34,594 bases of DNA from Nemertoderma westbladi (Eukaryota > Animalia > Xenacoelomorpha), in the NCBI GenBank assembly GCA_032718475.1, contig JAUCBJ010004644.1, positions 1 through 34,594 of the forward strand, in the 5' to 3' direction. How positions within the stretch are numbered: position 1 is the first letter of the stretch; every line of letters begins with the position of its first letter. The notes beneath the pieces are model-generated. The model saw only the letters and a program-made list of their open reading frames with translations, did not search any database and was not told the origin of the DNA. Shown here piece after piece: positions 886 through 29,720 of this stretch. A program made the position numbers and the translations under genes.

Positions 886-907
886 CCCCACATGATCTGA
901 TGATACG

Positions 908-4266: not shown

Positions 4267-7200
4267 GCATAACGTGGAATGGTAATATGGTAACGCCTAC
4301 TTGGGCCCCGTTGCATAACGTGGAATGGTAATATGGTAACGCCTACTTGGGCCCCGTTGCATAACGTGGAATGGTAATATGGTAACGCCTACTTGGGCCC
4401 CGTTGCATAACGTGGAATGGTAATATGGTAACGCCTACTTGGGCCCCGTTGCATAACGTGGAATGGTAATATGGTAACGCCTACTTGGGCCCCGTTGCAT
4501 AACGTGGAATGGTAATATGGTAACGCCTACTTGGGCCCCGTTGCATAACGTGGAATGGTAATATGGTAACGCCTACTTGGGACCCGTTGCATAACGTGGA
4601 ATGGTAATATGGTAACGCCTACTTGGGCCCCTTTGCATGACGTGGAATGGTAATATGGTAACGCCTACTTGGGCCCCGTTGCATAACGTGGAATGGTAAT
4701 ATGGTAACGCCTACTTGGGCCCCTTTGCATGACGTGGAATGGTAATATGGTAACGCCTACTTGGGCCCCGTTGCATAACGTGGAATGGTAATATGGTAAC
4801 GCCTACTTGGGACCCGTTGCATAACGTGGAATGGTAATATGGTAACGCCTACTTGGGCCCCGTTGCATAACGTGGAATGGTAATATGGTAACGCCTACTT
4901 GGGCCCCGTTGCATAACGTGGAATGGTAATATGGTAACGCCTACTTGGGACCCGTTGCATAACGTGGAATGGTAATATGGTAATGCCTACTTGGGCCGCG
5001 TTGCATAACGTGGAATGGTAATATGGTAACGCCTACTTGGGACCCGTTGCCTAACGTGGAATGGTAATATGGTAACGCCTACTTGGGCCCCGTTGCATAA
5101 CGTGGAATGGTAATATGGTAATGCCTACTTGGGCCGCGTTGCATAACGTGGAATGGTAATATGGTAACGCCTACTTGGGACCCGTTGCCTAACGTGGAAT
5201 GGTAATATGGTAACGCCTACTTGGGCCCCGTTGCATAACGTGGAATGGTAATATGGTAATGCCTACTTGGGCCGCGTTGCATAACGTGGAATGGTAATAT
5301 GGTAACGCCTACTTGGGACCCGTTGCCTAACGTGGAATGGTAATATGGTAACGCCTACTTGGGCCCCTTTGCATGACGTGGAATGGTAATATGGTAACGC
5401 CTACTTGGGCCCCGTTGCATAACGTGGAATGGTAATATGGTAACGCCTACTTGGGACCCGTTGCATAACGTGGAATGGTAATATGGTAACGCCTACTTGG
5501 GCCCCTTTGCATGACGTGGAATGGTAATATGGTAACGCCTACTTGGGCCCCGTTGCATAACGTGGAATGGTAATATGGTAACGCCTACTTGGGCCGCGTT
5601 GCATAACGTGGAATGGTAATATGGTAACGCCTACTTGGGACCCGTTGCCTAACGTGGAATGGTAATATGGTAACGCCTACTTGGGCCCCGTTGCATAACG
5701 TGGAATGGTAATATGGTAATGCCTACTTGGGCCGCGTTGCATAACGTGGAATGGTAATATGGTAACGCCTACTTGGGCCCCGTTGCATAACGTGGAATGG
5801 TAATATGGTAACGCCTACTTGGGCCCCGTTGCATAACGTGGAATGGTAATATGGTAACGCCTACTTGGGCCCCGTTGCATAACGTGGAATGGTAATATGG
5901 TAACGCCTACTTGGGCCCCGTTGCATAACGTGGAATGGTAATATGGTAACGCCTACTTGGGCCCCGTTGCATAACGTGGAATGGTAATATGGTAACGCCT
6001 ACTTGGGCCCCGTTGCATAACGTGGAATGGTAATATGGTAACGCCTACTTGGGACCCGTTGCATAACGTGGAATGGTAATATGGTAACGCCTACTTGGGC
6101 CCCTTTGCATGACGTGGAATGGTAATATGGTAACGCCTACTTGGGCCCCGTTGCATAACGTGGAATGGTAATATGGTAACGCCTACTTGGGCCCCTTTGC
6201 ATGACGTGGAATGGTAATATGGTAACGCCTACTTGGGCCCCGTTGCATAACGTGGAATGGTAATATGGTAATGCCTACTTGGGCCGCGTTGCATAACGTG
6301 GAATGGTAATATGGTAACGCCTACTTGGGACCCGTTGCCTAACGTGGAATGGTAATATGGTAACGCCTACTTGGGCCCCGTTGCATAACGTGGAATGGTA
6401 ATATGGTAATGCCTACTTGGGCCGCGTTGCATAACGTGGAATGGTAATATGGTAACGCCTACTTGGGACCCGTTGCCTAACGTGGAATGGTAATATGGTA
6501 ACGCCTACTTGGGCCCCGTTGCATAACGTGGAATGGTAATATGGTAATGCCTACTTGGGCCGCGTTGCATAACGTGGAATGGTAATATGGTAACGCCTAC
6601 TTGGGACCCGTTGCCTAACGTGGAATGGTAATATGGTAACGCCTACTTGGGCCCCTTTGCATGACGTGGAATGGTAATATGGTAACGCCTACTTGGGCCC
6701 CGTTGCATAACGTGGAATGGTAATATGGTAACGCCTACTTGGGACCCGTTGCATAACGTGGAATGGTAATATGGTAATGCCTACTTGGGCCGCGTTGCAT
6801 AACGTGGAATGGTAATATGGTAACGCCTACTTGGGACCCGTTGCCTAACGTGGAATGGTAATATGGTAACGCCTACTTGGGCCCCGTTGCATAACGTGGA
6901 ATGGTAATATGGTAATGCCTACTTGGGCCGCGTTGCATAACGTGGAATGGTAATATGGTAACGCCTACTTGGGACCCGTTGCCTAACGTGGAATGGTAAT
7001 ATGGTAACGCCTACTTGGGCCCCGTTGCATAACGTGGAATGGTAATATGGTAATGCCTACTTGGGCCGCGTTGCATAACGTGGAATGGTAATATGGTAAC
7101 GCCTACTTGGGACCCGTTGCCTAACGTGGAATGGTAATATGGTAACGCCTACTTGGGCCCCTTTGCATGACGTGGAATGGTAATATGGTAACGCCTACTT

Positions 7201-10200
7201 GGGCCCCGTTGCATAACGTGGAATGGTAATATGGTAACGCCTACTTGGGACCCGTTGCATAACGTGGAATGGTAATATGGTAACGCCTACTTGGGCCCCT
7301 TTGCATGACGTGGAATGGTAATATGGTAACGCCTACTTGGGCCCCGTTGCATAACGTGGAATGGTAATATGGTAACGCCTACTTGGGCCGCGTTGCATAA
7401 CGTGGAATGGTAATATGGTAACGCCTACTTGGGACCCGTTGCCTAACGTGGAATGGTAATATGGTAACGCCTACTTGGGCCCCGTTGCATAACGTGGAAT
7501 GGTAATATGGTAATGCCTACTTGGGCCGCGTTGCATAACGTGGAATGGTAATATGGTAACGCCTACTTGGGCCCCGTTGCATAACGTGGAATGGTAATAT
7601 GGTAACGCCTACTTGGGCCCCGTTGCATAACGTGGAATGGCAATATGGTAACGCCTACTTGGGCCCCGTTGCATAACGTGGAATGGTAATATGGTAACGC
7701 CTACTTGGGCCCCGTTGCATAACGTGGAATGGTAATATGGTAATGCCTACTTGGGCCGCGTTGCATAACGTGGAATGGTAATATGGTAACGCCTACTTGG
7801 GCCCCGTTGCATAACGTGGAATGGTAATATGGTAACGCCTACTTGGGCCGCGTTGCATAACGTGGAATGGTAATATGGTAACGCCTACTTGGGCCCCGTT
7901 GCATAACGTGGAATGGTAATATGGTAACGCCTACTTGGGCCCCGTTGCATAACGTGGAATGGTAATATGGTAACGCCTACTTGGGACCCGTTGCATAACG
8001 TGGAATGGTAATATGGTAATGCCTACTTGGGCCGCGTTGCATAACGTGGAATGGTAATATGGTAACGCCTACTTGGGACCCGTTGCCTAACGTGGAATGG
8101 TAATATGGTAACGCCTACTTGGGCCCCGTTGCATAACGTGGAATGGTAATATGGTAATGCCTACTTGGGCCGCGTTGCATAACGTGGAATGGTAATATGG
8201 TAACGCCTACTTGGGACCCGTTGCCTAACGTGGAATGGTAATATGGTAACGCCTACTTGGGCCCCGTTGCATAACGTGGAATGGTAATATGGTAATGCCT
8301 ACTTGGGCCGCGTTGCATAACGTGGAATGGTAATATGGTAACGCCTACTTGGGACCCGTTGCCTAACGTGGAATGGTAATATGGTAACGCCTACTTGGGC
8401 CCCTTTGCATGACGTGGAATGGTAATATGGTAACGCCTACTTGGGCCCCGTTGCATAACGTGGAATGGTAATATGGTAACGCCTACTTGGGACCCGTTGC
8501 ATAACGTGGAATGGTAATATGGTAACGCCTACTTGGGCCCCTTTGCATGACGTGGAATGGTAATATGGTAACGCCTACTTGGGCCCCGTTGCATAACGTG
8601 GAATGGTAATATGGTAACGCCTACTTGGGCCGCGTTGCATAACGTGGAATGGTAATATGGTAACGCCTACTTGGGACCCGTTGCCTAACGTGGAATGGTA
8701 ATATGGTAACGCCTACTTGGGCCCCGTTGCATAACGTGGAATGGTAATATGGTAATGCCTACTTGGGCCGCGTTGCATAACGTGGAATGGTAATATGGTA
8801 ACGCCTACTTGGGCCCCGTTGCATAACGTGGAATGGTAATATGGTAACGCCTACTTGGGCCCCGTTGCATAACGTGGAATGGTAATATGGTAACGCCTAC
8901 TTGGGCCCCGTTGCATAACGTGGAATGGTAATATGGTAACGCCTACTTGGGCCCCGTTGTATAACGTGGAATGGTAATATGGTAACGCCTACTTGGGCCC
9001 CGTTGCATAACGTGGAATGGTAATATGGTAACGCCTACTTGGGCCCCGTTGCATAACGTGGAATGGTAATATGGTAACGCCTACTTGGGACCCGTTGCAT
9101 AACGTGGAATGGTAATATGGTAACGCCTACTTGGGCCCCTTTGCATGACGTGGAATGGTAATATGGTAACGCCTACTTGGGCCCCGTTGCATAACGTGGA
9201 ATGGTAATATGGTAACGCCTACTTGGGCCCCTTTGCATGACGTGGAATGGTAATATGGTAACGCCTACTTGGGCCCCGTTGCATAACGTGGAATGGTAAT
9301 ATGGTAACGCCTACTTGGGACCCGTTGCATAACGTGGAATGGTAATATGGTAACGCCTACTTGGGCCCCGTTGCATAACGTGGAATGGTAATATGGTAAC
9401 GCCTACTTGGGACCCGTTGCATAACGTGGAATGGTAATATGGTAATGCCTACTTGGGCCGCGTTGCATAACGTGGAATGGTAATATGGTAACGCCTACTT
9501 GAGACCCGTTGCCTAACGTGGAATGGTAATATGGTAACGCCTACTTGGGCCCCGTTGCATAACGTGGAATGGTAATATGGTAATGCCTACTTGGGCCGCG
9601 TTGCATAACGTGGAATGGTAATATGGTAACGCCTACTTGGGACCCGTTGCCTAACGTGGAATGGTAATATGGTAACGCCTACTTGGGCCCCGTTGCATAA
9701 CGTGGAATGGTAATATGGTAATGCCTACTTGGGCCGCGTTGCATAACGTGGAATGGTAATATGGTAACGCCTACTTGGGACCCGTTGCCTAACGTGGAAT
9801 GGTAATATGGTAACGCCTACTTGGGCCCCTTTGCATGACGTGGAATGGTAATATGGTAACGCCTACTTGGGCCCCGTTGCATAACGTGGAATGGTAATAT
9901 GGTAACGCCTACTTGGGACCCGTTGCATAACGTGGAATGGTAATATGGTAACGCCTACTTGGGCCCCTTTGCATGACGTGGAATGGTAATATGGTAACGC
10001 CTACTTGGGCCCCGTTGCATAACGTGGAATGGTAATATGGTAACGCCTACTTGGGCCGCGTTGCATAACGTGGAATGGTAATATGGTAACGCCTACTTGG
10101 GACCCGTTGCCTAACGTGGAATGGTAATATGGTAACGCCTACTTGGGCCCCGTTGCATAACGTGGAATGGTAATATGGTAATGCCTACTTGGGCCGCGTT

Positions 10201-11911
10201 GCATAACGTGGAATGGTAATATGGTAACGCCTACTTGGGCCCCGTTGCATAACGTGGAATGGTAATATGGTAACGCCTACTTGGGCCCCGTTGCATAACG
10301 TGGAATGGTAATATGGTAACGCCTACTTGGGCCCCGTTGCATAACGTGGAATGGTAATATGGTAACGCCTACTTGGGCCCCGTTGCATAACGTGGAATGG
10401 TAATATGGTAACGCCTACTTGGGACCCGTTGCATAACGTGGAATGGTAATATGGTAACGCCTACTTGGGCCCCGTTGCATAACGTGGAATGGTAATATGG
10501 TAATGCCTACTTGGGCCGCGTTGCATAACGTGGAATGGTAATATGGTAACGCCTACTTGGGCCCCGTTGCATAACGTGGAATGGTAATATGGTAACGCCT
10601 ACTTGGGCCCCGTTGGATAACATGGAATGGTAATATGGTAACGCCTACTTGGGCCCCGTTGCATAACGTGGAATGGTAATATGGTAACGCCTACTTGGGA
10701 CCCGTTGCATAACGTGGAATGGTAATATGGTAACGCCTACTTGGGCCCCGTTGCATAACGTGGAATGGTAATATGGTAATGCCTACTTGGGCCGCGTTGC
10801 ATAACGTGGAATGGTAATATGGTAACGCCTACTTGGGCCCCGTTGCATAACGTGGAATGGTAATATGGTAACGCCTACTTGGGCCCCGTTGCATAACGTG
10901 GAATGGTAATATGGTAACGCCTACTTGGGCCCCGTTGCATAACGTGGAATGGTAATATGGTAACGCCTACTTGGGCCCCGTTGCATAACGTGGAATGGTA
11001 ATATGGTAACGCCTACTTGGGCCCCGTTGCATAACGTGGAATGGTAATATGGTAACGCCTACTTGGGCCCCGTTGCATAACGTGGAATGGTAATATGGTA
11101 ACGCCTACTTGGGACCCGTTGCATAACGTGGAATGGTAATATGGTAACGCCTACTTGGGCCCCGTTGCATAACGTGGAATGGTAATATGGTAATGCCTAC
11201 TTGGGCCGCGTTGCATAACGTGGAATGGTAATATGGTAACGCCTACTTGGGCCCCGTTGCATAACGTGGAATGGTAATATGGTAACGCCTACTTGGGCCC
11301 CGTTGGATAACATGGAATGGTAATATGGTAACGCCTACTTGGGCCCCGTTGCATAACGTGGAATGGTAATATGGTAACGCCTACTTGGGACCCGTTGCAT
11401 AACGTGGAATGGTAATATGGTAACGCCTACTTGGGCCCCGTTGCATAACGTGGAATGGTAATATGGTAATGCCTACTTGGGCCGCGTTGCATAACGTGGA
11501 ATGGTAATATGGTAACGCCTACTTGGGCCCCGTTGCATAACGTGGAATGGTAATATGGTAACGCCTACTTGGGCCCCGTTGCATAACGTGGAATGGTAAT
11601 ATGGTAACGCCTACTTGGGCCCCTTTGCATGACGTGGAATGGTAATATGGTAACGCCTACTTGGGCCCCGTTGCATAACGTGGAATGGTAATATGGTAAC
11701 GCCTACTTGGGCCCCGTTGCATAACGTGGAATGGTAATATGGTAACGCCTACTTGGGCCCCGTTGCATAACGTGGAATGGTAATATGGTAACGCCTACTT
11801 GGGCCCCTTTGCATGACGTGGAATGGTAATATGGTAACGCCTACTTGGGCCCCGTTGCATAACGTGGAATGGTAATATGGTAACGCCTACTTGGGCCGCG
11901 TTGCATAACGT
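4267..11911. repeat. Satellite array of ~166 copies of a 46-bp unit GCATAACGTGGAATGGTAATATGGTAACGCCTACTTGGGCCCCGTT
   Basis: Constant 46-bp period (e.g. 4267 to 4313), substitution variants only, no ORF of 60 aa or more in the track. Confidence 0.98.
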
Positions 11912-15053: not shown

Positions 15054-17266
15054 TCTACTACTACTAGGATCGGCATGCTGCATTGCAGCTCAATTATTAA
15101 GAATGCTGTGCCGGCTTATCGACAAAATTGCGCCGCCACAACTCCCTATCACCCATGACATTTGCTAGATCATCTGCATCTTCAAGGCCAGTGTCCTTTA
15201 AGATGCGTCTCAAGAAAGTCATGGGCTGTCCACCATGCTTATTCACTCCATGAGGCTGCCAAAGTACAAGATTATGCACTGGCTGGTCCTCACGGCGAAA
15301 GCAATGTCATGCAAAGCGGAGGCGATTTTGTTCTAGTGTCAAGCTTGGCGGAACCAATGAGACACCTCCAATGTTATATAGTGTCTGGTTGGAGATGTGT
15401 GCATTGTACTTGACACAATGAACCCGGCGTAGCGTTCTTGTAAATGTGCCATCCAGAGATTTGGTGTCCTCAGCAGTTAGAGCCCAGCATGGACTCCCAT
15501 AGAGGAGTACTGGAACTACTGCTGCTCTAAATAATCGGACCTTAAGTTTCCGATTAATTCTCGGTGACTTCCAAATACTGGAAGGCCTATTCAAGGCTGC
15601 CCATGCCTTTCCCTAACGTATTCGAAGGTCCTCACCTGACTTCCGGATCCTTGATCCCAGGTAACAGAAGTCGTCCACATGCTCAAGCATACCATCCTTT
15701 GAGCTTATGTTCATCCGATCAGAGGCTTGCTGAGGACTTTCAAAGTTAACTATAAAAAGACCAACACTAGAAGCAGCATGTTCTAATGAGCTGAGGAGCC
15801 ATGGGGCTCCCTCTAGTGATTCTGAGAGTACTCCTAAGTCATCAGCAAAGTCTAGATCGGTTATGTACTTGGCAGGATTTCCTCGACTTCTGGAGCCAGT
15901 AGGTGGAGTTATCATCACCCCAGCATCATTATGATGATCGAAAGACATGCGTAGAACATAGTCAACCACAATTATGAACAAGAAAGTGCAAGTGTGTCTC
16001 CCTGGAGGACGCCCCATAACACTTCAAATGGTTCTGTGTCACCGTCAACAGTAGACACAAATGTTGTCGAACCATCGTATACTGATCTGATTGCTGCAAT
16101 AATTTCATCAGGAATCCCATATAATGAAAGTATGCTGAACATACGTGAGCGAGAGACTGAACCAAAGGCCTTGAAGAAGTCAACAAAGATAACAGCCAGA
16201 TGCCTGTCGTTCTTTTTTGATAACTCTTCAATTATCCTTCTAAGTGCCAAAGTTGATTCCATGGCCCCATGACCTTTACGGAACCCATTCTGATTTCCAC
16301 GGAGCAGTCTCTCAATGGGATCCCTGATGCGATTTAATATAATTCTATTGTATAACTTTGCAGAAATCGAGATCAATGAGATTCCCCGAAAAGAACCAGA
16401 GTGTTAGGTTGCCCTTCTTGGGAACTGGCACAAACTTATTTGTTTTCATTTCTTGTGGGACTCTTGTTGTTCGGTACATGTCTACTATGATGGGATAGAT
16501 GAGCTTTAAACACTCAGGTATTTTAAAGACCTCAGGGGGAACACCATCTACTCCACTGACACGATTGGTCTTAATGCTCTTTGCAGCAGCCTTCACTTCT
16601 GCAAAGGAGATATCGCCAGTGGGAATATCTGGGAGTACAGACTCAGACACTTTTACTTCTATAAAGTTATCAGGCAATACCCTGTCGTCATTATTGAGGA
16701 GCTTTTCAAAGTGGGCCTTCCAACCTTTGAGGCGATCAGCTGGTGATTCAGCCTTAACCTTGGTGGTTGGTTGGCTTTTCCGCCCAGTAAGCAAGTTGGT
16801 CGATTTCCATGCCTGGGATGATTGCCTACTGTCGTCAGCATCATTGATGGCATCAACCTTTTGGTTTATTAGCTCCTGTAGATTAAAAGAGTACTGCCTG
16901 TTCAGGGACCTAGATGCAACCTTAACTGCATTCTTGGCCGCTGTAGTCTGTTTGATTCGGGACTCTTTCTGCGCCTTATAGAGGTCATTTCGACACTTCT
17001 GAATTTTGTTGTCAGTCCAGGGGGGCCCTTTTCCTGTTTCCAGGGTATACAGTAACTGTTTCTGCAGCTGCTAACTTAACTGCTTCTCTGAAGGCAGTAT
17101 AGCCCTCACAGTGATCTGCCGCCTCAGAGGCAAGAACCTCATACCTGTTGCTCAGCTGTAGTGTGAAGCTGGATCTCACACTTGGCTGTTGCAACAGAGA
17201 GGACCAGTCATGCCGCGGCAATGCAGATTTCGTGAGTGAAGATGTGCAAGAAGACAAAATTTGCAT
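15054..17266 (-). mobile_element. Decayed, 5'-truncated non-LTR retrotransposon (RTE-like LINE reverse transcriptase), frameshifted
   Basis: Overlapping ORF fragments with GVDGVPPE, QNGFRKGHG, IFVDFFKAF, GVLQGDTLA, DLDFADDL, FCYLGS and KLKVRLFRAAVVPVLLYGS; (TAG)n tail at ~15054-15066; endonuclease domain absent. Confidence 0.9.
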
Positions 17267-17467: not shown

Positions 17468-18472
17468 TGCTACCTGGGTTATGCCATGACCTACTATACT
17501 ACTACCTACCTACTATATTTTCTGGGCCGCTTAATCGATTGAAAGTAATATAGAAAACTCAAGTCTTAGTGGTACATCATTTTTGGTGCACCAAAATTAG
17601 GGTGTGGCATTAAGTAGGCTTTGAAGTATTTGCATTTGAAGTAGACTTCAAATTTTCAAAATTACGATATTCAGAAAATACCACAAGGTTTTCATTTCAA
17701 CCCATTTTTATAGGTTATCTACTACCTACCTACCTACCATGGTCTACTATAGTACACGTCATAGTTATGCCTATACAATATCTATATTGTGTAGCTATTC
17801 ACACTTAAACTAAATGTTCCAGAACATTTTGTATTTATTAAATAGAATAAATGGCCTGCAGCAAACAATAATTATTGCAATCTTTGAACGCCTATTTCTC
17901 AGCTGTTTCTCAACGAAATCCAGATATTGTTACATATTTGAAATCATTGCAACGCAAGTTTTCTATTGATATAAAAAAATAACTATTAATGTGAAGAATG
18001 TCAATAATACGGAGGGTGCGATTTCGCAAAAGGCACTAACAGAAATTTAAAGGCGAAATCGAAAATTCCGGCTTCATGGTAACAACCACGGTGAGTTGAA
18101 CTACTGTAGTTGTGTTTCAAATTTCAAGCAACATGATAAAGATTTGTATAAAAATTTGGGGGGGGGGGGGGTGGGGTGTCCCTGTCATCAGAAAATTACA
18201 CTATAATATTACGGGACATGGTGTATAATAAATTGCCCCGCGCAGCTATGCAAAACCATGCAAATTTCGAAGGCTCATATCTCCGTTTCTTTTACGACGA
18301 AATTCAGATTTATTAGTATTATGTATTTATTTTTCAGAAACTAAAATTCCTGTTTCACCCAAACATACTTGATGTCGCGGTAGGTCCGCTGTTAGAGAGA
18401 GATGGGATATGCATCTTAAGATTGCATGTTCAATAGAAGTGGATTAGATGGGAGAGTGAATGTCAGGTGCAA

Positions 18473-19070
18473 CAGAGGCATACCGAGGGTGGGGGGGGGG
18501 GGGACAATTTTTATGGGCGCCGATTTATGAAGGGCGCCAAATTAGAAAATTCGGTTTATGAGGGCGGCATAATATCATAAATAATATAAAGGGCCCTACT
18601 AAAAACATTAGAAAATAATTAAATAATAAAAAAAGAAAAAAAAATTATTTTATTATGAACGAAATAAACCACTTACAAACCATTTTATTATTACAGTAAA
18701 TCACCTAGGGCTTGCAACAACAATGCTATTATTTACTATATTTACAAGATCGTTTAAGTAGTTTGGCTTTATTAAGTATAAGTATACAGTAGAGAACACG
18801 AAGTTTGATGTGATTGATTGGGACGATGTAATAAATATATTTGCAGATAAAAAATCTAGGAAAGTATCAATTATTGTAATCCTACTGTAGCACTACTCCT
18901 ACTGTACATACAATTAGCAACATTTTTTAAAAATGTAATAATATTTTAAAATTGGTATCGGTAATAAAATTTTATAATACTGTATATAATTTTATGAATT
19001 TAGATGAATTTGTGGGGTGGGGTGTAGAATCAGCTTGTCACAGGGCGCCAGAAACCTTGGTACGCCTCTG
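18473..19070. mobile_element. Non-autonomous hAT-type DNA transposon (MITE), 598 bp
   Basis: TIRs CAGAGGCATACCGAGG / CCTTGGTACGCCTCTG (14/16 match); 8-bp TSD AGGTGCAA (18465-18472) / AGGGGCAA (19071-19078); subterminal GGGCGCC motifs. Confidence 0.85.
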
Positions 19071-19071
19071 A

Positions 19072-19181
19072 GGGGCAAGTGGCTGAACTGGTTAGCGCTA
19101 CTGATGAGGCCTGATATGCTGAAACGTACGTATAGCGGTGGTTCAACCCCCGATGATGGATAACGAGCTTCCTCGTTTTTT
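19072..19181 (+). ncRNA. tRNA-promoter (Pol III) element carrying a hammerhead ribozyme
   Basis: A box TGGCTGAACTGG 19080-19091, B box GGTTCAACCCC 19140-19150, hairpin AACGAG-cttc-CTCGTT running into T6 at 19176-19181. Confidence 0.75.
19096..19137 (+). ncRNA. Minimal type I hammerhead ribozyme, predicted cleavage after GUA (19132/19133)
   Basis: CGCTA | CTGATGA | GGC-ctgatat-GCT | GAAA | C-GTAC-G | TA | TAGCG: complete core, 5-bp stem I, 3-bp stem II, palindromic stem III ACGTACGT. Confidence 0.85.
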
Positions 19182-20356
19182 CCCATTTACAGTTGCATTA
19201 ACAGCTCAACTCCAATTTATTTAATTAATAACAATCAAATAAAATTTACTCTTAAGGATGTATCAATAATTAAGTTATATTATACAAGTTGCTTTTCCAA
19301 CTTAATCTGTAGTGAGCCAAAGCCCAAAAATTAAAAAAAGTACATATATGTGAGTTAATTTAATATACAGTAGAAAAGGGATAAATAAAATAATCACAAT
19401 CACACCGGTATTAATTTGTAAACCCCTAAGTAATAAAGGAAATCAGCTGACAATCAGAGAATACCCTGTACTTTGTACTCATACACACGTCCGTAGGGCC
19501 GTCGCGCAGGACGAGGCTCAGTTATCAGATACAGATTAAAATTGAGCAATTCTATCCCAAAATCGGTACTTAAGATATTTAAATAAATAAATAAGAAATT
19601 TAACCAAACCGCCAATAAGAATAAATCAAAGAAGAGAGGAAAGTTCCCCCCTCGCTTCAACCGCCCTCTTAATCTGCACCAACCCAACCGAAAGGAGCAC
19701 AGAGGATTAAGGAAAGGCAGAGGTATTAACAGGAAATTTGTGTTTTAAAAGTAATATATTTTTAGGTGTGGACTATCATGGAGGCAATCCAATTTGTAAA
19801 AATTATTAAAACTTACCTTATGCCGATAGTATTTATACTGAAATAGTAATTTATCATGTCAACTCCTCAAATAAATTATTTAGCTAATGATTCTAAAGAA
19901 TATGATTAAATACTCCATGCAATCATTTTGTGAGATAAATAATAAGCAAGCTGGCTTATTAGTCACTTTACACTAGTAGTGCCTGCCTTGTCTATGTTCT
20001 ATAGATGTAATTACCAGTTGCCAAGTAGTGATGAGATGATTGGACTGGTTCCAACTCCAACTAGCAGGCAATAACTAGTATGCCAAGGAATCAATGAGGA
20101 GGGCATTATGACTTAATTACGTTTAGATCAATTAAAATTTCTTAAAGCAAATCACTTGAACTAATTGAAAATTATAATGGAATGGTATGGGGATTACTAC
20201 AGCTGTATAACTTTTAAGTATAATTATTTATATCTTATACTATAAAATAATTAATTTCCATTACAAGAAAGGCTTGAAAATGCTGTTTTTACCCTAATCA
20301 ACTTAATTAACTGCTATTATTTTAGCTTCTCGAAGGCCACACGGAAATTCAACTTG

Positions 20357-20656
20357 CGCCATACATTCGCTATGTATATTGTAAACTCAATGAATTATAT
20401 TATTCGAACTCTATTAGCTATTACTTTTTGTATTCGTCATACAGCTGTTAGGACTCTTATAAACTTAAACTCTACAGCTGTTAGGACTATTGGTGGTGGT
20501 TAGGTTGACTAATATTATGTGCTCTTTATTGATGAGTTTTATTATTATTATTTTTGTGTCTAAAGTAAAATATAATTTATTAGTTTTGGAAATTATTTGT
20601 GTGATTTATTTGGGTTAGATGAGGGACTGAACGCTGGCCGTGCTTAACTTCTTGCG
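20357..20656 (+). repeat. 5' LTR (300 bp)
   Basis: CGCCATAC...TTCTTGCG; matches 25273-25572 with one mismatch seen by eye (20472 C versus 25388 A). Confidence 0.93.
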
Positions 20657-20666
20657 TGGTGGCTGG
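20657..20666 (+). promoter_or_regulatory. Primer binding site TGGTGGCTGG
   Basis: Begins with TGG (complement of tRNA CCA) immediately after the 5' LTR. Confidence 0.7.
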
Positions 20667-20845
20667 ATTATGAACCCTAGCCTTACAGACTTTCATAATC
20701 TGAATTTGCCTGACATTAACTGTTAGCGTTTCACCCAGCTCTTCCTTTAGACAAGATTTATTTCTTAGCACAAAAGGTTCGGTATATCAGTGAAATCATC
20801 CCAACTTTACACAATATCATTTCCCGGATCTGTTTTTATTCAATC

Positions 20846-23800
20846 ATGTCTTTAAAACCACCCAAACAATGGAGTCTGACCGAAAATGAGACTATTTCGT
20901 CATTTAACAACTGGCGCCAGAACATATTATTTCAACTTTCTACCTCGGATGAGTTCTCTCAGTTCCTTGATACATCATGGGGTGCTCAATTTACAACTAC
21001 AAACCGTGGTCTGACAGATGACCCAACTTCTGCCACACCAAGAAGATCTGCGGAAATGAATTCTCAGGCTGATGTGGCCCGTGTTTCTGCCAATATGGCT
21101 CAAATTGACGTTGCTAGCTCTTCTTCCTTTCGCCGCAATCCTTATCCCCAGCAAAACAAAATGCCTTTTCGTGGTTCAAATAAATCATTCCGGCAATCTG
21201 GATATCGTTCAAGCTCACAAACTTCTAAATCATGTTCATTTTGTAAGGCTTGTTCCAAACCTCATTTGGGACATGATATATCATCGTGTTGGGCTCTTTC
21301 CCGCTCTGATCGGTTGGGGCTAATGAAGGCCCTTGCTGTTGAAGTGTATGATGAGGAAGAACAAGATCCAGATGAATTTCCTGCTGATGACTCCATTACA
21401 GCACAATGTGTAACATCACCCACTGCTTTTAGAGTACAGTGTATGACCTCACCATATTTCTTTGCTTTTTTCAAATCTATACCATGCAGGGTTACAATTG
21501 ATACTGGTGCCACATCTAATCTTGTTTCTATGGCATTTGTCATGTCAGCCGGTATTACATTTTCCAGATCGGTACAAAGTGCTCGACAACTTGATAAATC
21601 ACTAATCAAGACTGTTGGTGAGGTTCACATCTCCCTATCATATGGAGGAATTGACCTCCAACTCGAAGCTCTAGTTTGTGAGTCTATGGATACTGATATC
21701 TTAGGAGGGGTTCCTTTCTGTGTTCAGAATGGTATAGAGGTAAATTTGGCTCGCCAGGAAATCAATTTGAAAGGTAAACTTATCACTTATGGTTCCAGAG
21801 CTGAAAATTTCAGCAACATTAGATTCCTTCAACAATGTGTGCGAAATCCTAAATCGACAACAATATTTCCTGGTGATTTTCTTGAAGTCACCAGTGATTC
21901 ATTATCCAATTTCAATGGAGAAGTAGCTGTCGAACCTCGATTTGATTCCCCTCTAAGTGGTTCGTGGCCATCTCCAATAATTACCCGTGTGATTGAGGGA
22001 GCCATCCGGATTCCGAACCATTCTGAGGTACCAATCAATCTTAAAAAGGCTCAACATATTGCCCAGATACAACCTGTTGTATCTTCAGATTTTAAGTTTG
22101 AAGCACCATTCACTCCAGCTCCAATGTTAGAATTTCCTTCCGATATGTCATTTTCTTCTACTGTTGTCCTAGATCCTGATAATCAACTCACAAGTATACA
22201 GAAAGAACAATTTCAAAGATTATTGGTCAAGTATGACTCTGTATTCAATCCTGACATTGGCGCCTATAATGATAATAGTGGTTGTATTCGTGCAAATATT
22301 AATTTAGGTCCTGTTCTCCCCCCCTCTACTAAGGGCAGGATTCCCTTTTATAATAATTCCAATCTTTCTCTACTACAGGAAGAAGCTGACAAATTGGAGC
22401 GTCTTGGTGTATTGGTTAAACCTGAAGATGTTGGAATTATTCCCCAATGTGTGTCTCCTAGTTTTCTGGTTAATAAGCCTGATGGAGGTAAGCGATTTGT
22501 AACTGCTTTCAACAACATTGCTCAGTTCACTAGAATGATTCCAGGCACTGTCACAAAATGTGATGATGTTCTTCGTAATATTTCTTCTTTTAAATACCTG
22601 ATTAAAACAGATTTGACCAAAAGTTTCTTCCAAATAAAGGTGTCTAAATCATCAATGCCTTATTTAGGTACAGTTACTCCATACAAGGGAATTCGTCTTT
22701 ATGCTAGAGCTGCTATGGGCATGCCTGGTTCGTCGGAATGGCTCGATGAAGTTGTATCTCGTGTTTTTGGTGATCTATTACAGCAAGGGAAAGTTGTTAA
22801 GTTGGCGGATGATCTCTATACAGGAGGAGATAGCATTGATGATTTGGTTATCAACTTTGAAAACATTCTTGAGCGTCTTTCTAATAATAACCTTCGACTT
22901 TCTAGTTCAAAGACAGTTATTGCTCCAAAGTCAACTACTATTCTCGGTTGGATATGGAGGGGCGGTTCCATATCAGTCAGCTGTCACAAAATTACCCCTC
23001 TAGTTGTCATGTCACCTCCATCTACATGTACAGCAATGAAATCATTCCTGGGAGCTTGTCAGGATGTATCCAGGTGTATAGAAGGTTACTCCTCTTTATT
23101 GGCTCCCCTTGAGGATAGTATTAAGGGTTTGAAAGGTAATGAGAAATTATCTTGGTCTCCAGAATTGCAGTCTGCTTTTAAGAAAGTCCAGGATACACTA
23201 CGTTCACCTAATACCATAACTATACCTACAAAAAGTGACCGGCTTGTTATTTCTGTTGACGCTGCCTGTAAAGTTTCCAATAAAGGTTTAGGGGCTACTC
23301 TGTTCGTGGTCCGCGGGGATAAAAAACATATTGGCGGATTTTACAGCTTCAAATTGCGTGACCATCAGACAAAGTGGCTTCCCTGTGAGGTCGAGGCCCT
23401 GGCCATTGGCTCTGCTGCTCAACATTGGAGGTCTCTTATTTGCAATAGTATACATACTACTCAGATTCTAACTGATAGCCGTCCTTGTGTTGATGCTTGG
23501 AAGAAACTATGCCGTGGTGAATTTTCCTCTTCAGCCCGAGTGTCCACTTTTCTTACCATTCTAAGTTCACTTAATATTAGTGTTTGTCACATTAAGGGTG
23601 TCAACAACTCTGTTAGCGATTATCAGTCTAGAAACCCCGCAATCTGCACTTATCCCAATTGTCAGATTTGTAAATTCGTCTCAGATACAGTGGATTCTGT
23701 TGTTTATGATATCTCTATATCTGATGTTCTAGCTGGAAGAATACATATGCCATATTTAAATAATACCTCATGGCGTGCTGCCCAACATGCATGTCCTGTT

Positions 23801-25267
23801 CTTCGCAAGGCATACATCCACTTGAAGAATGGATCTAAACCGCTAAGAAAGCACAAAGGAGGACGTGATCTTAAGGAATATCTTCGCATCGCATCGATTA
23901 GCAGCTCTTCTGATTTGATTGTCATTCGGAAACATGACCCATTTGTACATTCCAGAGACCTTACTGTTGTACCTAAGGATATCTCTGTGGGACTGCTCAC
24001 TGCTTTACATACACTCTTCAGCCACCCTTCCAAACATCAGATGGTTTTATTGTTTAATCGTTACTATTTTGCTATTGGTTCCACTAAGACAATCCAAGAC
24101 ATCGTAGACAATTGCGAAGTTTGTAATGCACTCAAGAAGGTTCCCCATGAATTAATTGAAGAAACTAGCTCTTCATCTCCGGATCAAGTTTTCCAAAAGC
24201 TTGCTGCCGATGTCATCCGCAGAAATCGTCAGAAGATACTTGTAGTCAGAGATATCTTATCCAGCTATACTGTAGCATCAATTATTCCAAGTGAACAAGC
24301 AACAGACCTTCGAGCTTCTATTATCACATCTATACTCCCCTTGAAATTCAAGATGTCAAAGGTTCGTGTTGATTGTTTCTCTTCCTTAAAATGTCTTGAA
24401 AATGATCCCCTTCTTGTCCAACATGGAATTCATCTAGAGTTTGGGAGAGTTAAAAACATAAATAAGAATCCAGTTGGTGAAAAGGCAATACAGGAACTTG
24501 AATCTGAGTTACTTCGACAGGACCCCGCTGGTGGACCAGTCACCCCACCTTCATTAACAGTATGTGTAGAAATGTTGAATTCCAGAATTCGAAGCCGCGG
24601 CTTATCTGCTAAAGAGATATTATATGGCAGAGATCAGGTTTCAGGTGAACGTTTGAATTTCAATGACCATGACCTTGCTGCTTCTCTTGATGAAGAAAAA
24701 TCTCGTAATCATGGTTACAGTGCCAAATGCAAGGCTCGAGGTTGCCTTCCCGCTGAAAAGGCTAATGTTCGTGAGGGTCACTTGGTTTACATTAAATCTG
24801 AAGGGTCAAAACTCCATGGTCGTGATAGGTATATTGTTATAAAAATCGATAAGAACATGGCTACACTTCAGAAGCTCCATGGTAATCGATTTGGCTCTCT
24901 TCAGTATGAAGTGCCATTAACGTCCATATTTCCCACCAATCAGGCATTTGATTGGGATCTCCATCAGATTTCATCTTCTTCCGATAATGAGTCTAGCTGT
25001 GATGACATTACTGTTCCTAAAATAAATGAACATTTCCCATGTGATGTTGATGAGAAAGCAACTATTCCAAAAGAGGTATTACGGAGATCAGGTCGTACCC
25101 GTAAAGAACCCGAAAGACTGGGTGTTTCTATGGACAACAATCTGGATTATAGTTCGGATAACCTCGATAACCTTCTCGAACCATGGTGTCCTGGGTGGAC
25201 AAAGGAGGACTATAAGGGCTATGCTGATATGAAATCTAAGAAGAATGAAGGAAAAAAAGATAATTAG
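20846..25267 (+). CDS. Retrotransposon Gag-Pol polyprotein, 1473 aa
   Basis: Zn knuckle CSFC..H..C, protease IDTGA, RT (KTDLTKSFFQI, MGMPGS, KLADD), RNase H (SVDA, EVEALAI, LTDS, SDYQSR), integrase HHCC (LHTLFSHP..CEVC) and DDE core. Confidence 0.93.
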   Translation: MSLKPPKQWSLTENETISSFNNWRQNILFQLSTSDEFSQFLDTSWGAQFTTTNRGLTDDPTSATPRRSAEMNSQADVARVSANMAQIDVASSSSFRRNPYPQQNKMPFRGSNKSFRQSGYRSSSQTSKSCSFCKACSKPHLGHDISSCWALSRSDRLGLMKALAVEVYDEEEQDPDEFPADDSITAQCVTSPTAFRVQCMTSPYFFAFFKSIPCRVTIDTGATSNLVSMAFVMSAGITFSRSVQSARQLDKSLIKTVGEVHISLSYGGIDLQLEALVCESMDTDILGGVPFCVQNGIEVNLARQEINLKGKLITYGSRAENFSNIRFLQQCVRNPKSTTIFPGDFLEVTSDSLSNFNGEVAVEPRFDSPLSGSWPSPIITRVIEGAIRIPNHSEVPINLKKAQHIAQIQPVVSSDFKFEAPFTPAPMLEFPSDMSFSSTVVLDPDNQLTSIQKEQFQRLLVKYDSVFNPDIGAYNDNSGCIRANINLGPVLPPSTKGRIPFYNNSNLSLLQEEADKLERLGVLVKPEDVGIIPQCVSPSFLVNKPDGGKRFVTAFNNIAQFTRMIPGTVTKCDDVLRNISSFKYLIKTDLTKSFFQIKVSKSSMPYLGTVTPYKGIRLYARAAMGMPGSSEWLDEVVSRVFGDLLQQGKVVKLADDLYTGGDSIDDLVINFENILERLSNNNLRLSSSKTVIAPKSTTILGWIWRGGSISVSCHKITPLVVMSPPSTCTAMKSFLGACQDVSRCIEGYSSLLAPLEDSIKGLKGNEKLSWSPELQSAFKKVQDTLRSPNTITIPTKSDRLVISVDAACKVSNKGLGATLFVVRGDKKHIGGFYSFKLRDHQTKWLPCEVEALAIGSAAQHWRSLICNSIHTTQILTDSRPCVDAWKKLCRGEFSSSARVSTFLTILSSLNISVCHIKGVNNSVSDYQSRNPAICTYPNCQICKFVSDTVDSVVYDISISDVLAGRIHMPYLNNTSWRAAQHACPVLRKAYIHLKNGSKPLRKHKGGRDLKEYLRIASISSSSDLIVIRKHDPFVHSRDLTVVPKDISVGLLTALHTLFSHPSKHQMVLLFNRYYFAIGSTKTIQDIVDNCEVCNALKKVPHELIEETSSSSPDQVFQKLAADVIRRNRQKILVVRDILSSYTVASIIPSEQATDLRASIITSILPLKFKMSKVRVDCFSSLKCLENDPLLVQHGIHLEFGRVKNINKNPVGEKAIQELESELLRQDPAGGPVTPPSLTVCVEMLNSRIRSRGLSAKEILYGRDQVSGERLNFNDHDLAASLDEEKSRNHGYSAKCKARGCLPAEKANVREGHLVYIKSEGSKLHGRDRYIVIKIDKNMATLQKLHGNRFGSLQYEVPLTSIFPTNQAFDWDLHQISSSSDNESSCDDITVPKINEHFPCDVDEKATIPKEVLRRSGRTRKEPERLGVSMDNNLDYSSDNLDNLLEPWCPGWTKEDYKGYADMKSKKNEGKKDN

Positions 25268-25272
25268 GACAG
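25238..25272 (+). promoter_or_regulatory. Purine-rich tract (PPT region) overlapping the end of the pol ORF
   Basis: AAGAAGAATGAAGGAAAAAAAGA...AGGACAG directly before the 3' LTR. Confidence 0.55.
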
Positions 25273-25572
25273 CGCCATACATTCGCTATGTATATTGTAA
25301 ACTCAATGAATTATATTATTCGAACTCTATTAGCTATTACTTTTTGTATTCGTCATACAGCTGTTAGGACTCTTATAAACTTAAACTATACAGCTGTTAG
25401 GACTATTGGTGGTGGTTAGGTTGACTAATATTATGTGCTCTTTATTGATGAGTTTTATTATTATTATTTTTGTGTCTAAAGTAAAATATAATTTATTAGT
25501 TTTGGAAATTATTTGTGTGATTTATTTGGGTTAGATGAGGGACTGAACGCTGGCCGTGCTTAACTTCTTGCG
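25273..25572 (+). repeat. 3' LTR (300 bp)
   Basis: Direct repeat of 20357-20656. Confidence 0.93.
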
Positions 25573-26198
25573 TTGGAAAATTTCTAAACTTTTTCCAGAC
25601 TACATGTGAACCAAGTTTGGATAGATTTCATCGATATTTGGCCGAGTTATTAACGTTTAAAACTAGACACGACAGAACAACAGACACCGATTGAGTTAGT
25701 GGTACCTGTATGCTAAGCTCGCGGCGCTCGGCTACAAATAAGGAGTGGGAAATTTAAAATGCAATCAATTAATGTATTCTCCCATGTCTGCATGTACTGT
25801 GCTACCGTGCAGCTAGGAGTACAGGAGTAACTCAGCCACTACAGTTAGTTACTATCAATTCAGCAACTTCAGACTTCAGCTTACTTGCCGACAAGCTACA
25901 CTGTACAACAGTACTGCAGTATATAGATATCGCAAAGTGAACATTGTCTATTAATACAAAAATATCCTAGAGTTTGTATTATGTAGGCCCTACCGCCTAC
26001 CTGCCTGCTGCCTACCCCTGTACCCTACAGCTACAAAGATATTTTAAAGTTAATATTACAGTATTATCTTTCCAATTTATCTTATTACTGCCAGACTGTG
26101 TTATTATATCTTGTGAGAGTGTTAAAGTAAAAGTAACAGCCGACTGACTGAACTATAGGAGTAACATTCATCCAATCGAAATATTGCAGTATTGTAAT

Positions 26199-29100
26199 AT
26201 GGGTTTGTCTTTTTTACCAGTCAGCTACGAAGCATTTACGCTTGTCCAATCCGGCAATGTTAACAGACTAAACGAACTGAGTGCTGTTGAGGTTCGAGCA
26301 ATCCTTCCCTACCTGGTGCGAACCACGTTGTGCGTACCAATGGACGATACGGCTTCCTGGGACTCGACTAGAGAGAAAATTCTAGAAACTCTAGTATCCA
26401 TGGAGCCGGTGAATAATATCGTCGCGTTTCTTAGCGTTGACTATCACATGTTGGAGCAAGATACTAAGAAAGAACTCTATTTGAAACAGAAACAGGGGAT
26501 AGACAGCATCCTCAAATCGGATTCGGTAAATAGTGGAAGTGAATCGTGTATTATGGAGTTCGAGCGGGGTGATTACATACACAAACTACGACTTATACAA
26601 CGGGAGGCGATTATATTAACCCTGATGGGGAAGCGAGTCGACTTACAGACGTACGAGAACGAGTTGTTAGACAGTCTGGTCTACCAGGAAGAGGTCTCCG
26701 ATAGTCTGTGTATCTGCCAAGCGGAGTTGCCGACAGTGCTGGCGATGGAGCAACTCGTTGAAGGTTTACTCCGTCTCGCAGACGGAGCAGTTTATATCAG
26801 TCGACTGGTCGCCAACTCCCCGGATGTGTTCCGTAAGGTTGTCGCGGCGTTGGTTGCGAACGCCGAGCCCCAGAGCGGTGAGGACGAGCTGCTGACGCGG
26901 CGTAGAAGCGACGCCATCCGATGTTTGTGTCGGATGAACCCGTCAGAACGACTCACTGTACGGGATTCCTGTGTGCAGAAACGTAAACTCGCTTCGCTCG
27001 TTATTCTCCTCTCGTTGGACCACCGCGACTCTGTGGATCTAGTCGGGTTCATATCCGGGCTACTCCTCGGGTCCGCGGTAGAAACTCGCCAGTGGTTCTG
27101 TAATTACATCCGCGGAGCCCAGAAGGGGAAGCCCTCGCCCTCGGGCGCCCACGAACACCCGCCCACCGCAGTCGCTGCTCTCGCTTCCCGACTCGTCGAC
27201 GAGTTGACTTCGCTAACTTCCTCCCTGTCGCTTCACGGTTCCGCGCTACTCGCCGCCGTATCGGTACTGCGTCTCTACGCCTCACTTCGTGGATTCGCCA
27301 ACTGGCGTTTCCCGGATACCGAAGCGAACCTTCTGTTTACCCTCGCTACCATGGCAACCGACCCCTCTCCCGCCGTAGATCGCTTCATCTCGGTTTCTCT
27401 CGCCTTCCTCCTCGCTTGTCCCTTCGTTATTAACACGACGGCGCAAGAACGCGCCACCGTAGTGTGGCTACGCGAACTCATTATCCGCAGCTCCGCCACC
27501 GGCCATATGCTCCTCCTATTGGCTATCCATTTCCATAGCAACCACACGACCAGTATAGTGGAACTTATCTGCTCGACTTTGGGAATGCGGATTCCTGTGC
27601 GAACCGCCTCGTTGGCTCGACTCAAAACGATGTTCACGGTGAGCGTGTTCACCGAGTCGGTGATCGCCTCGCACGCGGTGACGGTGCCCTCGACCGGTCC
27701 ACTCACCGCCCATCGCCACTCACTCCTACCCATACACTGTATGCTCCAACTACTGCGCAGCCGCACGTTCGCGCGTCACGGCGTCGCCATACAGCCCTGG
27801 ATCTACGCGCAGATCAACCAATCACGACGGCCGCTTCACCCGCTGCTGACGCCCCTTATCGACGCGTTCGTGAACTCGGTTCTCGGCTCCCGGAAGGCCG
27901 GCTCCCACGCCTTCCGTCAGGCCTTCACTGAAGGACAGATCGAGAGCACGGTTCGCTGCTACACCGCTGGGGGCGCCCTAACCCCCGCCCTACTCATTCT
28001 CTACTACTGCCTCCTTTACAAGGAGGTCCTCCAGACTAACGCCCGTTACTACCTAGACCTTTCGGTTGCCCCGGTTACCTACTCCCCCCGGCTCTACTCC
28101 TCGCTCCCCATTAAACTCCTACTCGGCCAGATAAAGGCGCAGCAACACGACTACAGCAACCTGTACCCGCCCACCCTGCGGTTGCTAAGCAAACACTACC
28201 CCGATCTGTGTCTCGTGTTGCCATGGTCCAAGGGATGCCATGGCAACACGGTGGACGGCGGGCCGCCCTCACCGGAGGAGCTGGAAGCGGCGCTAGGGGG
28301 CGCCAACCCGCCGCTAGGGAGCGCCAACCCGCCGCTATGGGGCGCCAACCCTCCGCTGGGGGGCGCCAACCCCACTAGGGCTCTACTCGCCCTCCAGGGA
28401 GCGCTACTGGCTCCCAACCCCGAGCCCTACCGCCCTGCGTTGCTACGCAACCTACGACGCGCACTGGTCGCCGGGACGCCCCGTCGTCTGGCCGACTCTA
28501 TGTGCGACTTGTGGCGCCGTCTGTACGCGGGGTTCCCCCGTCGCACCGGTGCCGACACGGTAAACGCCCTCCGCGTCGCGTCCCACACCTACTCCCAAGA
28601 GGATCTCACCCGGGACCCGTTGGTGGTCCTCAGCGTCGCACCGCCGGTGTTCCGGTGCCCTCCCTTACTCTCCTGTCTGCTTACCGTTCTCGAGGCTTCG
28701 CTCACCAGCTCCGACGTGCAGTTCGCCTCCCACTGCCAACTCAACCCCGTTGCCGAGGTAACCGGGGGGCTTCCCTCTAGCGATGACGTCATACTAACCG
28801 GCGCCACCAATGGCGCCTCCAAGGTTAGTTCCGAGCAGGAACGTGAGGAACTGCGTTCAGCGCTTAGTCTCGCAACCTATTCCGCGTCGATTCAGTTACT
28901 ACTGGAGGCGTGTCTCCCGGGTCCCGAGTGCGGCGCATCGCCGCTAGAGGCGCAGGGCGCCCAGCAGCTGACTGACCCCCAGGATGGGCGCCCCGACGCC
29001 CACCAGCTGACTAACCCCCAGGATGGGCGACCCAACGCCCACCAGCTGAGTGACCCCCAGGATGGGCGACCCAACGCCCACCAGCTGACTGACCCCCAGG

Positions 29101-29720
29101 ATGGGCGACCCAACGCCCACCAGCTGACTGACCTCCGCGAGGTTCAGGGCATCGTCTGCTCCTTCATTCACCAGCGGTTTATCGCGCAACCGATGCTCGC
29201 TAAACTCATCCACTTCCAGGGCTACTCCTCGGCGCTCCTCCCCGTTACAGTTCCCGGCATCGCCTCCATGCACATCTGCCTCGACTTCATCCCTGAGCTA
29301 CTGGGCCAACCCCATCCGGACAAACAGCTGTTCGGCATTCAACTGATCTCCCATCTGTGCGTCCAGTACGCGCTGCCCACCAGTCTCTCGGCCGCCCGTC
29401 TCGCCATCAACGTCTGCTCCACCCTCCTCACCGTTCTCACCTCTTCCTCGCGTCCGCAGTTCTTCACCTCCGCTCTCCCCGCTCTCGCTCGCATGTGCGA
29501 CGCCTTTCCGGTTCTCTGCTCCGACGTTACTTCCCTCCTCCTCCAACTCGGCCAGATAACCACCGCGGATATCGCCGATCGGCGACGGGGTGGCGTCCTA
29601 GCGCCATCTAGAGGCGAATACGCGTCCCAATTAGATAATAGTAGCGCCCTCTTGCAACAAGTTAAGGAAATATTTAGTGACATTCTGGACTCGGCCATTA
29701 TTAATAAAATTGGTAGATGA
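26199..29720 (+). CDS. INTS2: Integrator complex subunit 2, ~1173 aa, single-exon CDS
   Basis: VNNIVAFLSVDYHMLEQD, LLLLAIHFHSN, LLPIHCMLQLLRSRTF, DPLVVL..VFRCPP, LAKLIHFQGY and VPGIASMHICLDFIPELL are INTS2 signatures; first ATG at 26199. Confidence 0.92.
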   Translation: MGLSFLPVSYEAFTLVQSGNVNRLNELSAVEVRAILPYLVRTTLCVPMDDTASWDSTREKILETLVSMEPVNNIVAFLSVDYHMLEQDTKKELYLKQKQGIDSILKSDSVNSGSESCIMEFERGDYIHKLRLIQREAIILTLMGKRVDLQTYENELLDSLVYQEEVSDSLCICQAELPTVLAMEQLVEGLLRLADGAVYISRLVANSPDVFRKVVAALVANAEPQSGEDELLTRRRSDAIRCLCRMNPSERLTVRDSCVQKRKLASLVILLSLDHRDSVDLVGFISGLLLGSAVETRQWFCNYIRGAQKGKPSPSGAHEHPPTAVAALASRLVDELTSLTSSLSLHGSALLAAVSVLRLYASLRGFANWRFPDTEANLLFTLATMATDPSPAVDRFISVSLAFLLACPFVINTTAQERATVVWLRELIIRSSATGHMLLLLAIHFHSNHTTSIVELICSTLGMRIPVRTASLARLKTMFTVSVFTESVIASHAVTVPSTGPLTAHRHSLLPIHCMLQLLRSRTFARHGVAIQPWIYAQINQSRRPLHPLLTPLIDAFVNSVLGSRKAGSHAFRQAFTEGQIESTVRCYTAGGALTPALLILYYCLLYKEVLQTNARYYLDLSVAPVTYSPRLYSSLPIKLLLGQIKAQQHDYSNLYPPTLRLLSKHYPDLCLVLPWSKGCHGNTVDGGPPSPEELEAALGGANPPLGSANPPLWGANPPLGGANPTRALLALQGALLAPNPEPYRPALLRNLRRALVAGTPRRLADSMCDLWRRLYAGFPRRTGADTVNALRVASHTYSQEDLTRDPLVVLSVAPPVFRCPPLLSCLLTVLEASLTSSDVQFASHCQLNPVAEVTGGLPSSDDVILTGATNGASKVSSEQEREELRSALSLATYSASIQLLLEACLPGPECGASPLEAQGAQQLTDPQDGRPDAHQLTNPQDGRPNAHQLSDPQDGRPNAHQLTDPQDGRPNAHQLTDLREVQGIVCSFIHQRFIAQPMLAKLIHFQGYSSALLPVTVPGIASMHICLDFIPELLGQPHPDKQLFGIQLISHLCVQYALPTSLSAARLAINVCSTLLTVLTSSSRPQFFTSALPALARMCDAFPVLCSDVTSLLLQLGQITTADIADRRRGGVLAPSRGEYASQLDNSSALLQQVKEIFSDILDSAIINKIGR
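28291..28380 (+). repeat. In-frame 21-bp tandem repeat x4 in INTS2 (GANPPLG)
   Basis: GGCGCCAACCCGCCGCTAGGG units. Confidence 0.9.
28958..29133 (+). repeat. In-frame 39-bp tandem repeat x4.5 in INTS2 (QLTDPQDGRPNAH)
   Basis: Units start at 28965, 29004, 29043, 29082 and 29121 (partial). Confidence 0.92.

Follow-up and report, generated by a model that had tools for sequence, protein, structure and literature searches.

A hammerhead ribozyme between Pol III promoter boxes in an abundant short repeat of Nemertoderma westbladi

The locus and its motif

Here, we describe a hammerhead ribozyme motif lying between the A and B boxes of a Pol III promoter in DNA of Nemertoderma westbladi (Xenacoelomorpha). 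The whole stretch analysed, called the window below, is 34,594 nucleotides long (GenBank assembly GCA_032718475.1, contig JAUCBJ010004644.1) and is from an intron-poor animal genome. Genes of the TTL family (896-3418), P450 (12822-14342) and INTS2 (26148-29720) were found among the 6 of 34 open reading frames scanned, each as a single long intronless frame; INTS2 has internal tandem repeats of 7 and 13 amino acids and is 33-41% identical to its four best matches, from animals. Repetitive DNA includes a satellite (4266-11911) whose 46-bp unit is repeated 166 times at 96% likeness, arrays of a 17-bp unit (32439-33600), a frameshifted LINE-type reverse transcriptase remnant on the minus strand (15307-17250), and a young Gypsy-type element (20356-25571) with 300-bp direct repeats that are 100% identical, repeat ends other than TG...CA, and a 1515-aa frame with protease, reverse transcriptase, RNase H and integrase zinc finger.

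An earlier note on this DNA had reported an A box, a hammerhead core with a palindromic helix III, a B box, a 6-bp hairpin and a run of six T (T6). Their coordinates confirm all of these in the window copy (Table 1), and the ribozyme does sit where a tRNA has its anticodon and variable arm. The topology is type I and not type III, and the predicted cut falls between the boxes, separating the A-box half from the B-box half as had been claimed. The window holds the pattern of core plus B box once, and none of 100 shuffles has it; given the core, the chance of a box at the observed distance is about 0.007 for the A box and about 0.004 for the B box.

Rfam, a check that the note had proposed, gave no match (0 matches at gathering over the window and 0 at E ≤ 10 over 18900-19400), and ARAGORN found no tRNA. 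Neither ARAGORN nor Rfam thus gave a tRNA match that would point to descent from a particular tRNA. In the window copy the constrained hammerhead fold (-15.8 kcal/mol) is weaker than the free fold (-21.1 kcal/mol), the 110-mer folds no better than its shuffles (z +0.86), and pairing of the A box with the B box alone is not above shuffles (z -0.1). Two copies of the helix III palindrome form an 8-bp duplex of -9.8 kcal/mol, which bears out the claim that this helix favours a dimer.

Table 1. Window coordinates of the repeat unit, its parts and the DNA inserted in it
Feature	Position	Strand	Remarks
Candidate left TSD	18421-18426	+	6 bp, 5/6 match to 19192-19197
Left arm	18427-18464	+	Starts TGTTCA; purine-rich; complementary to right arm in family majority; likely LTR 5' end / U3
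Left 8-bp duplication of insertion	18465-18472	+	7/8 match to 19071-19078
Non-autonomous DNA transposon, 598 bp	18473-19070	.	Presumably hAT-like; splits the window copy; not part of the family
Pol III A box	19080-19091	+	3' end overlaps bulge and 5' strand of extended helix I (constrained fold)
Type I hammerhead	19095-19138	+	Predicted cut between 19132 and 19133
Helix I strands	5' 19096-19100; 3' 19133-19137	+	
Core CTGATGA	19101-19107	+	
Helix II strands	19108-19110; 19118-19120	+	
GAAA	19121-19124	+	Followed by C-GTAC-G palindrome and GTA triplet; predicted cut after 19132
Pol III B box	19140-19150	+	Able to pair with A-box region, extending helix I
Right arm including T6	19152-19191	+	Candidate LTR 3' end CA at 19190-19191; 19157-19163 private to window copy
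Small hairpin	19162-19177	+	Private to window copy
T6	19176-19181	+	Within right arm
Candidate right TSD	19192-19197	+	Alternatively, start of a TA-flanked repeat that overwrote the unit's end

A dispersed repeat family

Positions 19066-19215 were compared at 80% likeness with the contigs of four DNA runs (X1, X2 and X3, from two studies, and X6), of which X2 and X3 are one sample and X1 may be the source of the window. Matching contigs number 429 in X1, 481 in X2 and 779 in X3, counts that include a second repeat at 19187 onward, and for the same query and likeness 0 in X6. Summed depth in X1 is about 1.1e5, compared with 13-39 for the eight single contigs listed; summed depth is not copy number, and it suggests a family of thousands of copies. 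The motif belongs to a damaged copy of a short animal repeat of very high abundance.

Further copies keeping the core and the stems are present as family contigs in three runs. Some long contigs hold a single listed piece together with 600-2100 nt of other flank, which points to dispersed single copies, in line with the dispersed element without a tandem partner in the window that the earlier note had proposed. None of the 7 joints and 7 between-letter rows listed shows whole units head to tail, which is a weak argument because contigs break in repeats.

Five frequent differences from the window copy are listed, and they spare the catalytic core and the boxes. In the family, helix II regains its 4 bp through G at 19117 (99% of X1 depth) and helix I its 6 bp through C at 19138 (99.7% of X1 depth); one pair of each helix is lost in the window copy. 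T/C at 19120 exchanges G-U for G-C in helix II, a variant at 19114 lies within loop II, and with A/G at 19128 (3-7%) the palindrome still pairs, by wobble. The family majority restores canonical helices, and therefore the window copy is decayed. In the available text of PMC4209133, canonical metazoan type I hammerheads have a helix I of 6 bp, a helix II of 4 bp and a helix III of 1-2 bp with a palindromic loop, and the family majority letters agree (6/4/2). The minimal form proposed in the earlier note does not hold: minimal hammerheads in the pLTRs of Penelope-like elements (PLEs) have, in the same text, a helix II of 7-8 bp, an unpaired base after A9 and a linked RT/GIY-YIG frame, whereas the unit has a helix II of 3-4 bp and no extra base, and no GIY-YIG domain was found among the 6 of 34 frames scanned. 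The note's further statement that no Penelope frame is seen in the window was upheld.

Extent and ends of the unit

Contig depth falls to single-contig level left of 19071, where a 598-bp element ends whose terminal inverted repeats agree at 11 of the first 12 bases and which we take to be hAT-like from its 8-bp TSD; the labels hAT, Tc1/mariner and Ginger are assumptions of ours. The majority line of family contigs before 19071 matches the window at 27-28 of 30 letters at 18435-18464, on the far side of this element (44, 44 and 59 contigs in X1, X2 and X3), so the element jumped into the unit. Behind 19156, a majority line from 29, 30 and 33 contigs contains T6 and lacks the hairpin, and shared sequence runs on for at least 12 nt past T6. 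The majority lines agree at 0.62-0.65 upstream and at 0.74-0.77 behind 19156, and T6 is kept in 5 of 8 downstream rows, among the 18 of 214 loose-end rows listed. Median upstream loose lengths are 69 in X1, 70 in X2 and 37 in X3, with 38 expected; from the X1 and X2 values the unit could be longer.

These flanks bear on the reading of the motif as a stand-alone SINE or small RNA gene of 110 nt that is propagated through its own Pol III transcript and cleaved solely in trans. Such a reading would account for a tidy 105-110-nt unit defined by A box, B box and T6, and for family-match depth being confined, within the stretch searched, to 19071-19156 before a second rise. It is very unlikely, and is largely refuted by the shared flanks: upstream sequence is common to tens of contigs per run and matches the window beyond the inserted transposon, in place of the unrelated flanks expected at the Pol III start of a tRNA-derived SINE, and sequence is also shared beyond T6. 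A poly-A or simple-repeat 3' tail, another SINE feature, is absent from the motif and the family lines, and the terminal hairpin, which is present in the window copy as first reported, is absent from the majority line in all three runs covering it. The unit of about 110 nt given in the earlier note is thus too small, since family sequence runs on both 5' of 19071 and past T6, and a SINE derived from a transcript that begins near 19072 is disfavoured because shared sequence lies farther 5'.

The family's ends were read from 30-letter majority lines of unlinked contigs. In X1 and X2 the majority right end (...CTGAAC, within 30 letters) is the inverted form of TGTTCA at 18427, and the start at 18427 is placed by this match; the terminal A of the right end is missing from the main majority lines, and the X3 majority differs in its last letters. 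The span from TG at 18427 to CA at 19191 is 159 bp once the insertion is left out, with the tRNA-like head at position 41. Among 162 combinations of TG, CA and length this pair has the best flanking duplication (pair chance 0.9%), and the 6-bp, 5/6 duplication has modest support as a TSD once TG at 18427 is accepted; a 5/6 match is not significant when all 54 six-mer combinations are considered. There is no exact 4- or 5-bp TSD at this pair, and an earlier scan for exact TSDs gave only four matches, at chance level. The unit appears to be about 159 bp long, to begin with TG and end with CA, to have arms that can pair with each other, and to be flanked by a duplication matching at 5/6.

A second rise in depth at 19187-19189, where three unlike left flanks are seen, suggests that the sequence from 19190 on is a separate TA-flanked repeat, which could have overwritten the unit's true end; if so, the CA end would not be the unit's own. 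This second abundant repeat starts at about 19188 and its other end is not in the window. Its first bases are partly mirrored at 18388-18413, a stretch adjoined by a hairpin at 18405-18431 (z -3.1). Several candidates were rejected: a Helitron reading of this hairpin, which has no fitting termini by eye and lies mostly outside the inferred unit; a circular closure through it, with no second motif copy on the + strand; a tiny 92-bp LTR with the purine-rich stretch as PPT, because both shared flanks are present in the single window copy; and, for the window copy, a long rod structure, whose pairing did not exceed that of shuffles for any of 4 region pairs on either strand.

In the X2 arm lines, 23 of 26 ungapped positions pair (by eye), with 17 Watson-Crick pairs, 6 G-U and 0 A-C; under a composition null this has P=1.4e-4 for one register, perhaps 0.003 allowing for registers. 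One arm pair becomes A-C in the X1 majority line. In the window copy itself, arm pairing does not exceed that of shuffles (4216 of 5000 in the ungapped comparison). As inverted repeats running inward from the termini, the arms would suit a DNA-level TG...CA MITE, presumably Ginger-like, with the Pol III hammerhead cassette as a passenger or small RNA gene; monomers would be dispersed, as they appear to be, and T6 would fit a 105-nt transcript with read-through unnecessary. We consider this unlikely, as Watson-Crick pairing at only 17 of 26 positions is low for TIRs of so abundant a family, the frequent variants spare a ribozyme that a passenger does not need, and the layout agrees with Helenus LTRs.

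The arms also enter into a second alternative, in which the window copy would be a solo monomer of a non-LTR retrozyme similar to Sm-alpha: rare tandem master loci would yield multimeric RNA, which would be cut and closed into a circle folding as a rod whose one tip holds the hammerhead, and dispersed monomers would be spread by a Penelope-like or LINE enzyme. RNA-level pairing predicts mismatches such as those in X2, G-U without A-C (P of no A-C 0.028). Metazoan non-LTR retrozymes share with the unit the canonical type I helix sizes (PMC4209133), a weak palindromic helix III, a small, highly self-paired RNA (150-450 bp, which includes the unit's size; PMC7229834), and solo monomers, known and in such families common (PMC7229834, PMC7761336, bioRxiv 10.64898/2026.07.22.740005). 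In the available parts of these sources they are defined by tandem units, have no LTR features and are said to lack promoters, whereas the unit has A and B boxes and T6 as family features and no tandem partner in the window. The absence of whole-unit head-to-tail joints among the rows listed also counts, weakly, against this alternative, as do the conserved T6, which would halt Pol III before a full monomer, and the TG...CA-like ends, which would be unexpected; we regard it as rather unlikely. The Schistosoma repeats Sm-alpha and Sj-alpha likewise join a tRNA-derived Pol III promoter to a type I hammerhead in a high-copy animal repeat (available text of PMC6765202, PMC2770079 and PMC4918200), but Sm-alpha has a full tRNA-Gln promoter followed by the ribozyme, in tandem, whereas in the unit the ribozyme splits the promoter.

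A Helenus-like LTR retrozyme as the preferred reading

In the available text of PMC10886601 (Kojima 2024), LTRs of Helenus (TRIMp3) elements begin with TG and end with CA, and their tRNA-like part, which in bivalves starts 21-45 nt in, is often followed by a T-run; TRGCY, YGG and GGTTC are conserved. The unit has TRGCY and YGG in its A box and GGTTC in its B box, and is likewise a short non-coding unit with candidate TG...CA ends, boxes tens of bases inside, a T-run and many solo copies. The candidate TG...CA ends, the tRNA-like head at position 41, the T-run and the short tail are the Helenus layout, and we therefore favour, tentatively, a reading in which the window copy is a solo LTR left by a miniature LTR retrotransposon like Helenus, one that would act as an animal LTR retrozyme. 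The unit differs in having a 6-bp near-match (in one copy) in place of the 4-bp TSD of the animal families, and in having no internal part seen; it is not filed as Helenus because the 4-bp TSD is absent from the window copy. A full-length element, a PBS and a PPT were not seen, and the unit is single-copy within the window.

Hammerheads are also present in published Helenus LTRs. Two wasp sequences in the supplement of PMC10886601, Helenus-2_SyJa-LTR and Helenus-2_SyUm-LTR, have a type III hammerhead after the B box, with helices of 7, 4 and 6 bp and with loops I and II complementary over 12 bases (both by eye). They are two of the five CTGATGAG matches in the supplement file, where line breaks may hide others, and in the main text, as available, a hammerhead is named only in a reference. 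In the unit, by contrast, a type I hammerhead replaces the anticodon and variable arm between the boxes.

Wider collections were searched by pattern. The core plus B box pattern matched 1 viral and at least 120 metagenome loci; among the matches listed, a strict A box was present in 0 of 121 and a relaxed A box in 4 of 121, all one repeat, the relaxed A box having been defined after these 4 loci were seen and their B box being selected by the search pattern. The repeat (L020 at 25-122, L029, L049 and L091, from one metagenome) has an identical end of about 125 nt and unlike flanks, which look eukaryotic. Its hammerhead, between the relaxed A box and the B box, is of type III (Rfam E=0.005, a score under the gathering threshold); helix I resembles a tRNA D-arm, the B box is in a hairpin and the end is like those of fungal Helenus LTRs (available sequences). 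The repeat is a second, probably independent case of a hammerhead between Pol III boxes. A family-specific pattern matched 8 phage hammerheads (L122-L129), which have no boxes, and 0 prokaryote genome contigs; a pattern of D-loop plus core matched at least 120 viral loci, with a B box in none of the matches listed. No close relative of the family was found in the viral collection, in the metagenome collection among the matches listed, or in the prokaryote collection. Two other metagenome contigs, L088 and L060, are hammerhead-like with type I stems and do not have both boxes. The design may recur beyond the family, since hammerheads are found in the two wasp Helenus LTRs and in the fungal-like repeat as well.

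Plant LTR retrozymes resemble the unit in having a hammerhead in the LTR of a non-autonomous element; two LTR ribozymes free a circularisable monomer, and solo LTRs occur (Cervera et al. 2016; available text of PMC4918200). According to the same text they differ in being mostly type III, in LTRs of 300-400 bp and a 4-bp TSD, and in having no tRNA-derived boxes described, whereas the unit is type I. On the preferred reading we infer a full element of LTR, internal part and LTR, in which Pol III would start near the tRNA-like head of the 5' LTR, partly read through the T-run there and end transcription at the 3' LTR's own T-run. Through the palindromic helix III, the hammerheads of the two LTRs would pair in cis and both cut, and the released monomer, with a 5'-OH and a cyclic phosphate, would be ligated into a circle by an RtcB-type enzyme, a ligation shown for other retrozymes (available text of PMC7229834). 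An autonomous LTR element would reverse-transcribe and integrate this RNA, as in the plant retrozyme model (PMC4918200), and LTR-LTR recombination would leave solo LTRs such as the window copy, each giving a Pol III RNA of roughly 105 nt with a lone, weak ribozyme. The predicted cut lies between the boxes, so a linear monomer would carry B before A, and the promoter would be rebuilt only by copying across the ligated junction.

T6 should stop Pol III in the 5' LTR, which counts against this cycle; read-through would be required there, and published Helenus LTRs pose the same difficulty. The earlier note's interpretation is partly supported: a dimer is favoured by the palindrome as it had said, and the pairing in trans that it called for is not required if the unit is an LTR, since the partner ribozyme would then lie in the second LTR, in cis. 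A wider reading, of a Pol III animal LTR retrozyme whose promoter is split by its own ribozyme and rebuilt only through the ligated circle, and which belongs with the wasp and fungal-like cases to a recurring, undescribed class joining TRIMp3 elements and retrozymes, is possible but somewhat doubtful.

In the literature searched, outside which lie Repbase, Dfam and most subscription papers, we found neither a hammerhead placed between A and B boxes nor an LTR retrozyme from an animal described; the family may already be named as a repeat in Repbase or Dfam, and the supplements of bioRxiv 10.64898/2026.07.22.740005 may list such families. Two groups of retrozymes are recognised, one with LTRs in plants (type III) and one without LTRs in animals (type I), neither of which seems to carry a promoter according to the available text of a 2020 review. 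Whichever reading of the unit holds, the nested order of boxes and ribozyme is undescribed in the literature searched. To our knowledge, all animal retrozymes described are non-LTR, a point against the preferred reading. If the preferred reading is true, an animal LTR-type element whose Pol III promoter holds a type I hammerhead would cut across both lines of division and would offer a testable answer to how retrozymes get transcribed. One set of bases would act as TFIIIC boxes in DNA and form a ribozyme helix in RNA, and a ribozyme that depends on a dimer would work in full elements while staying nearly silent in solo LTRs.
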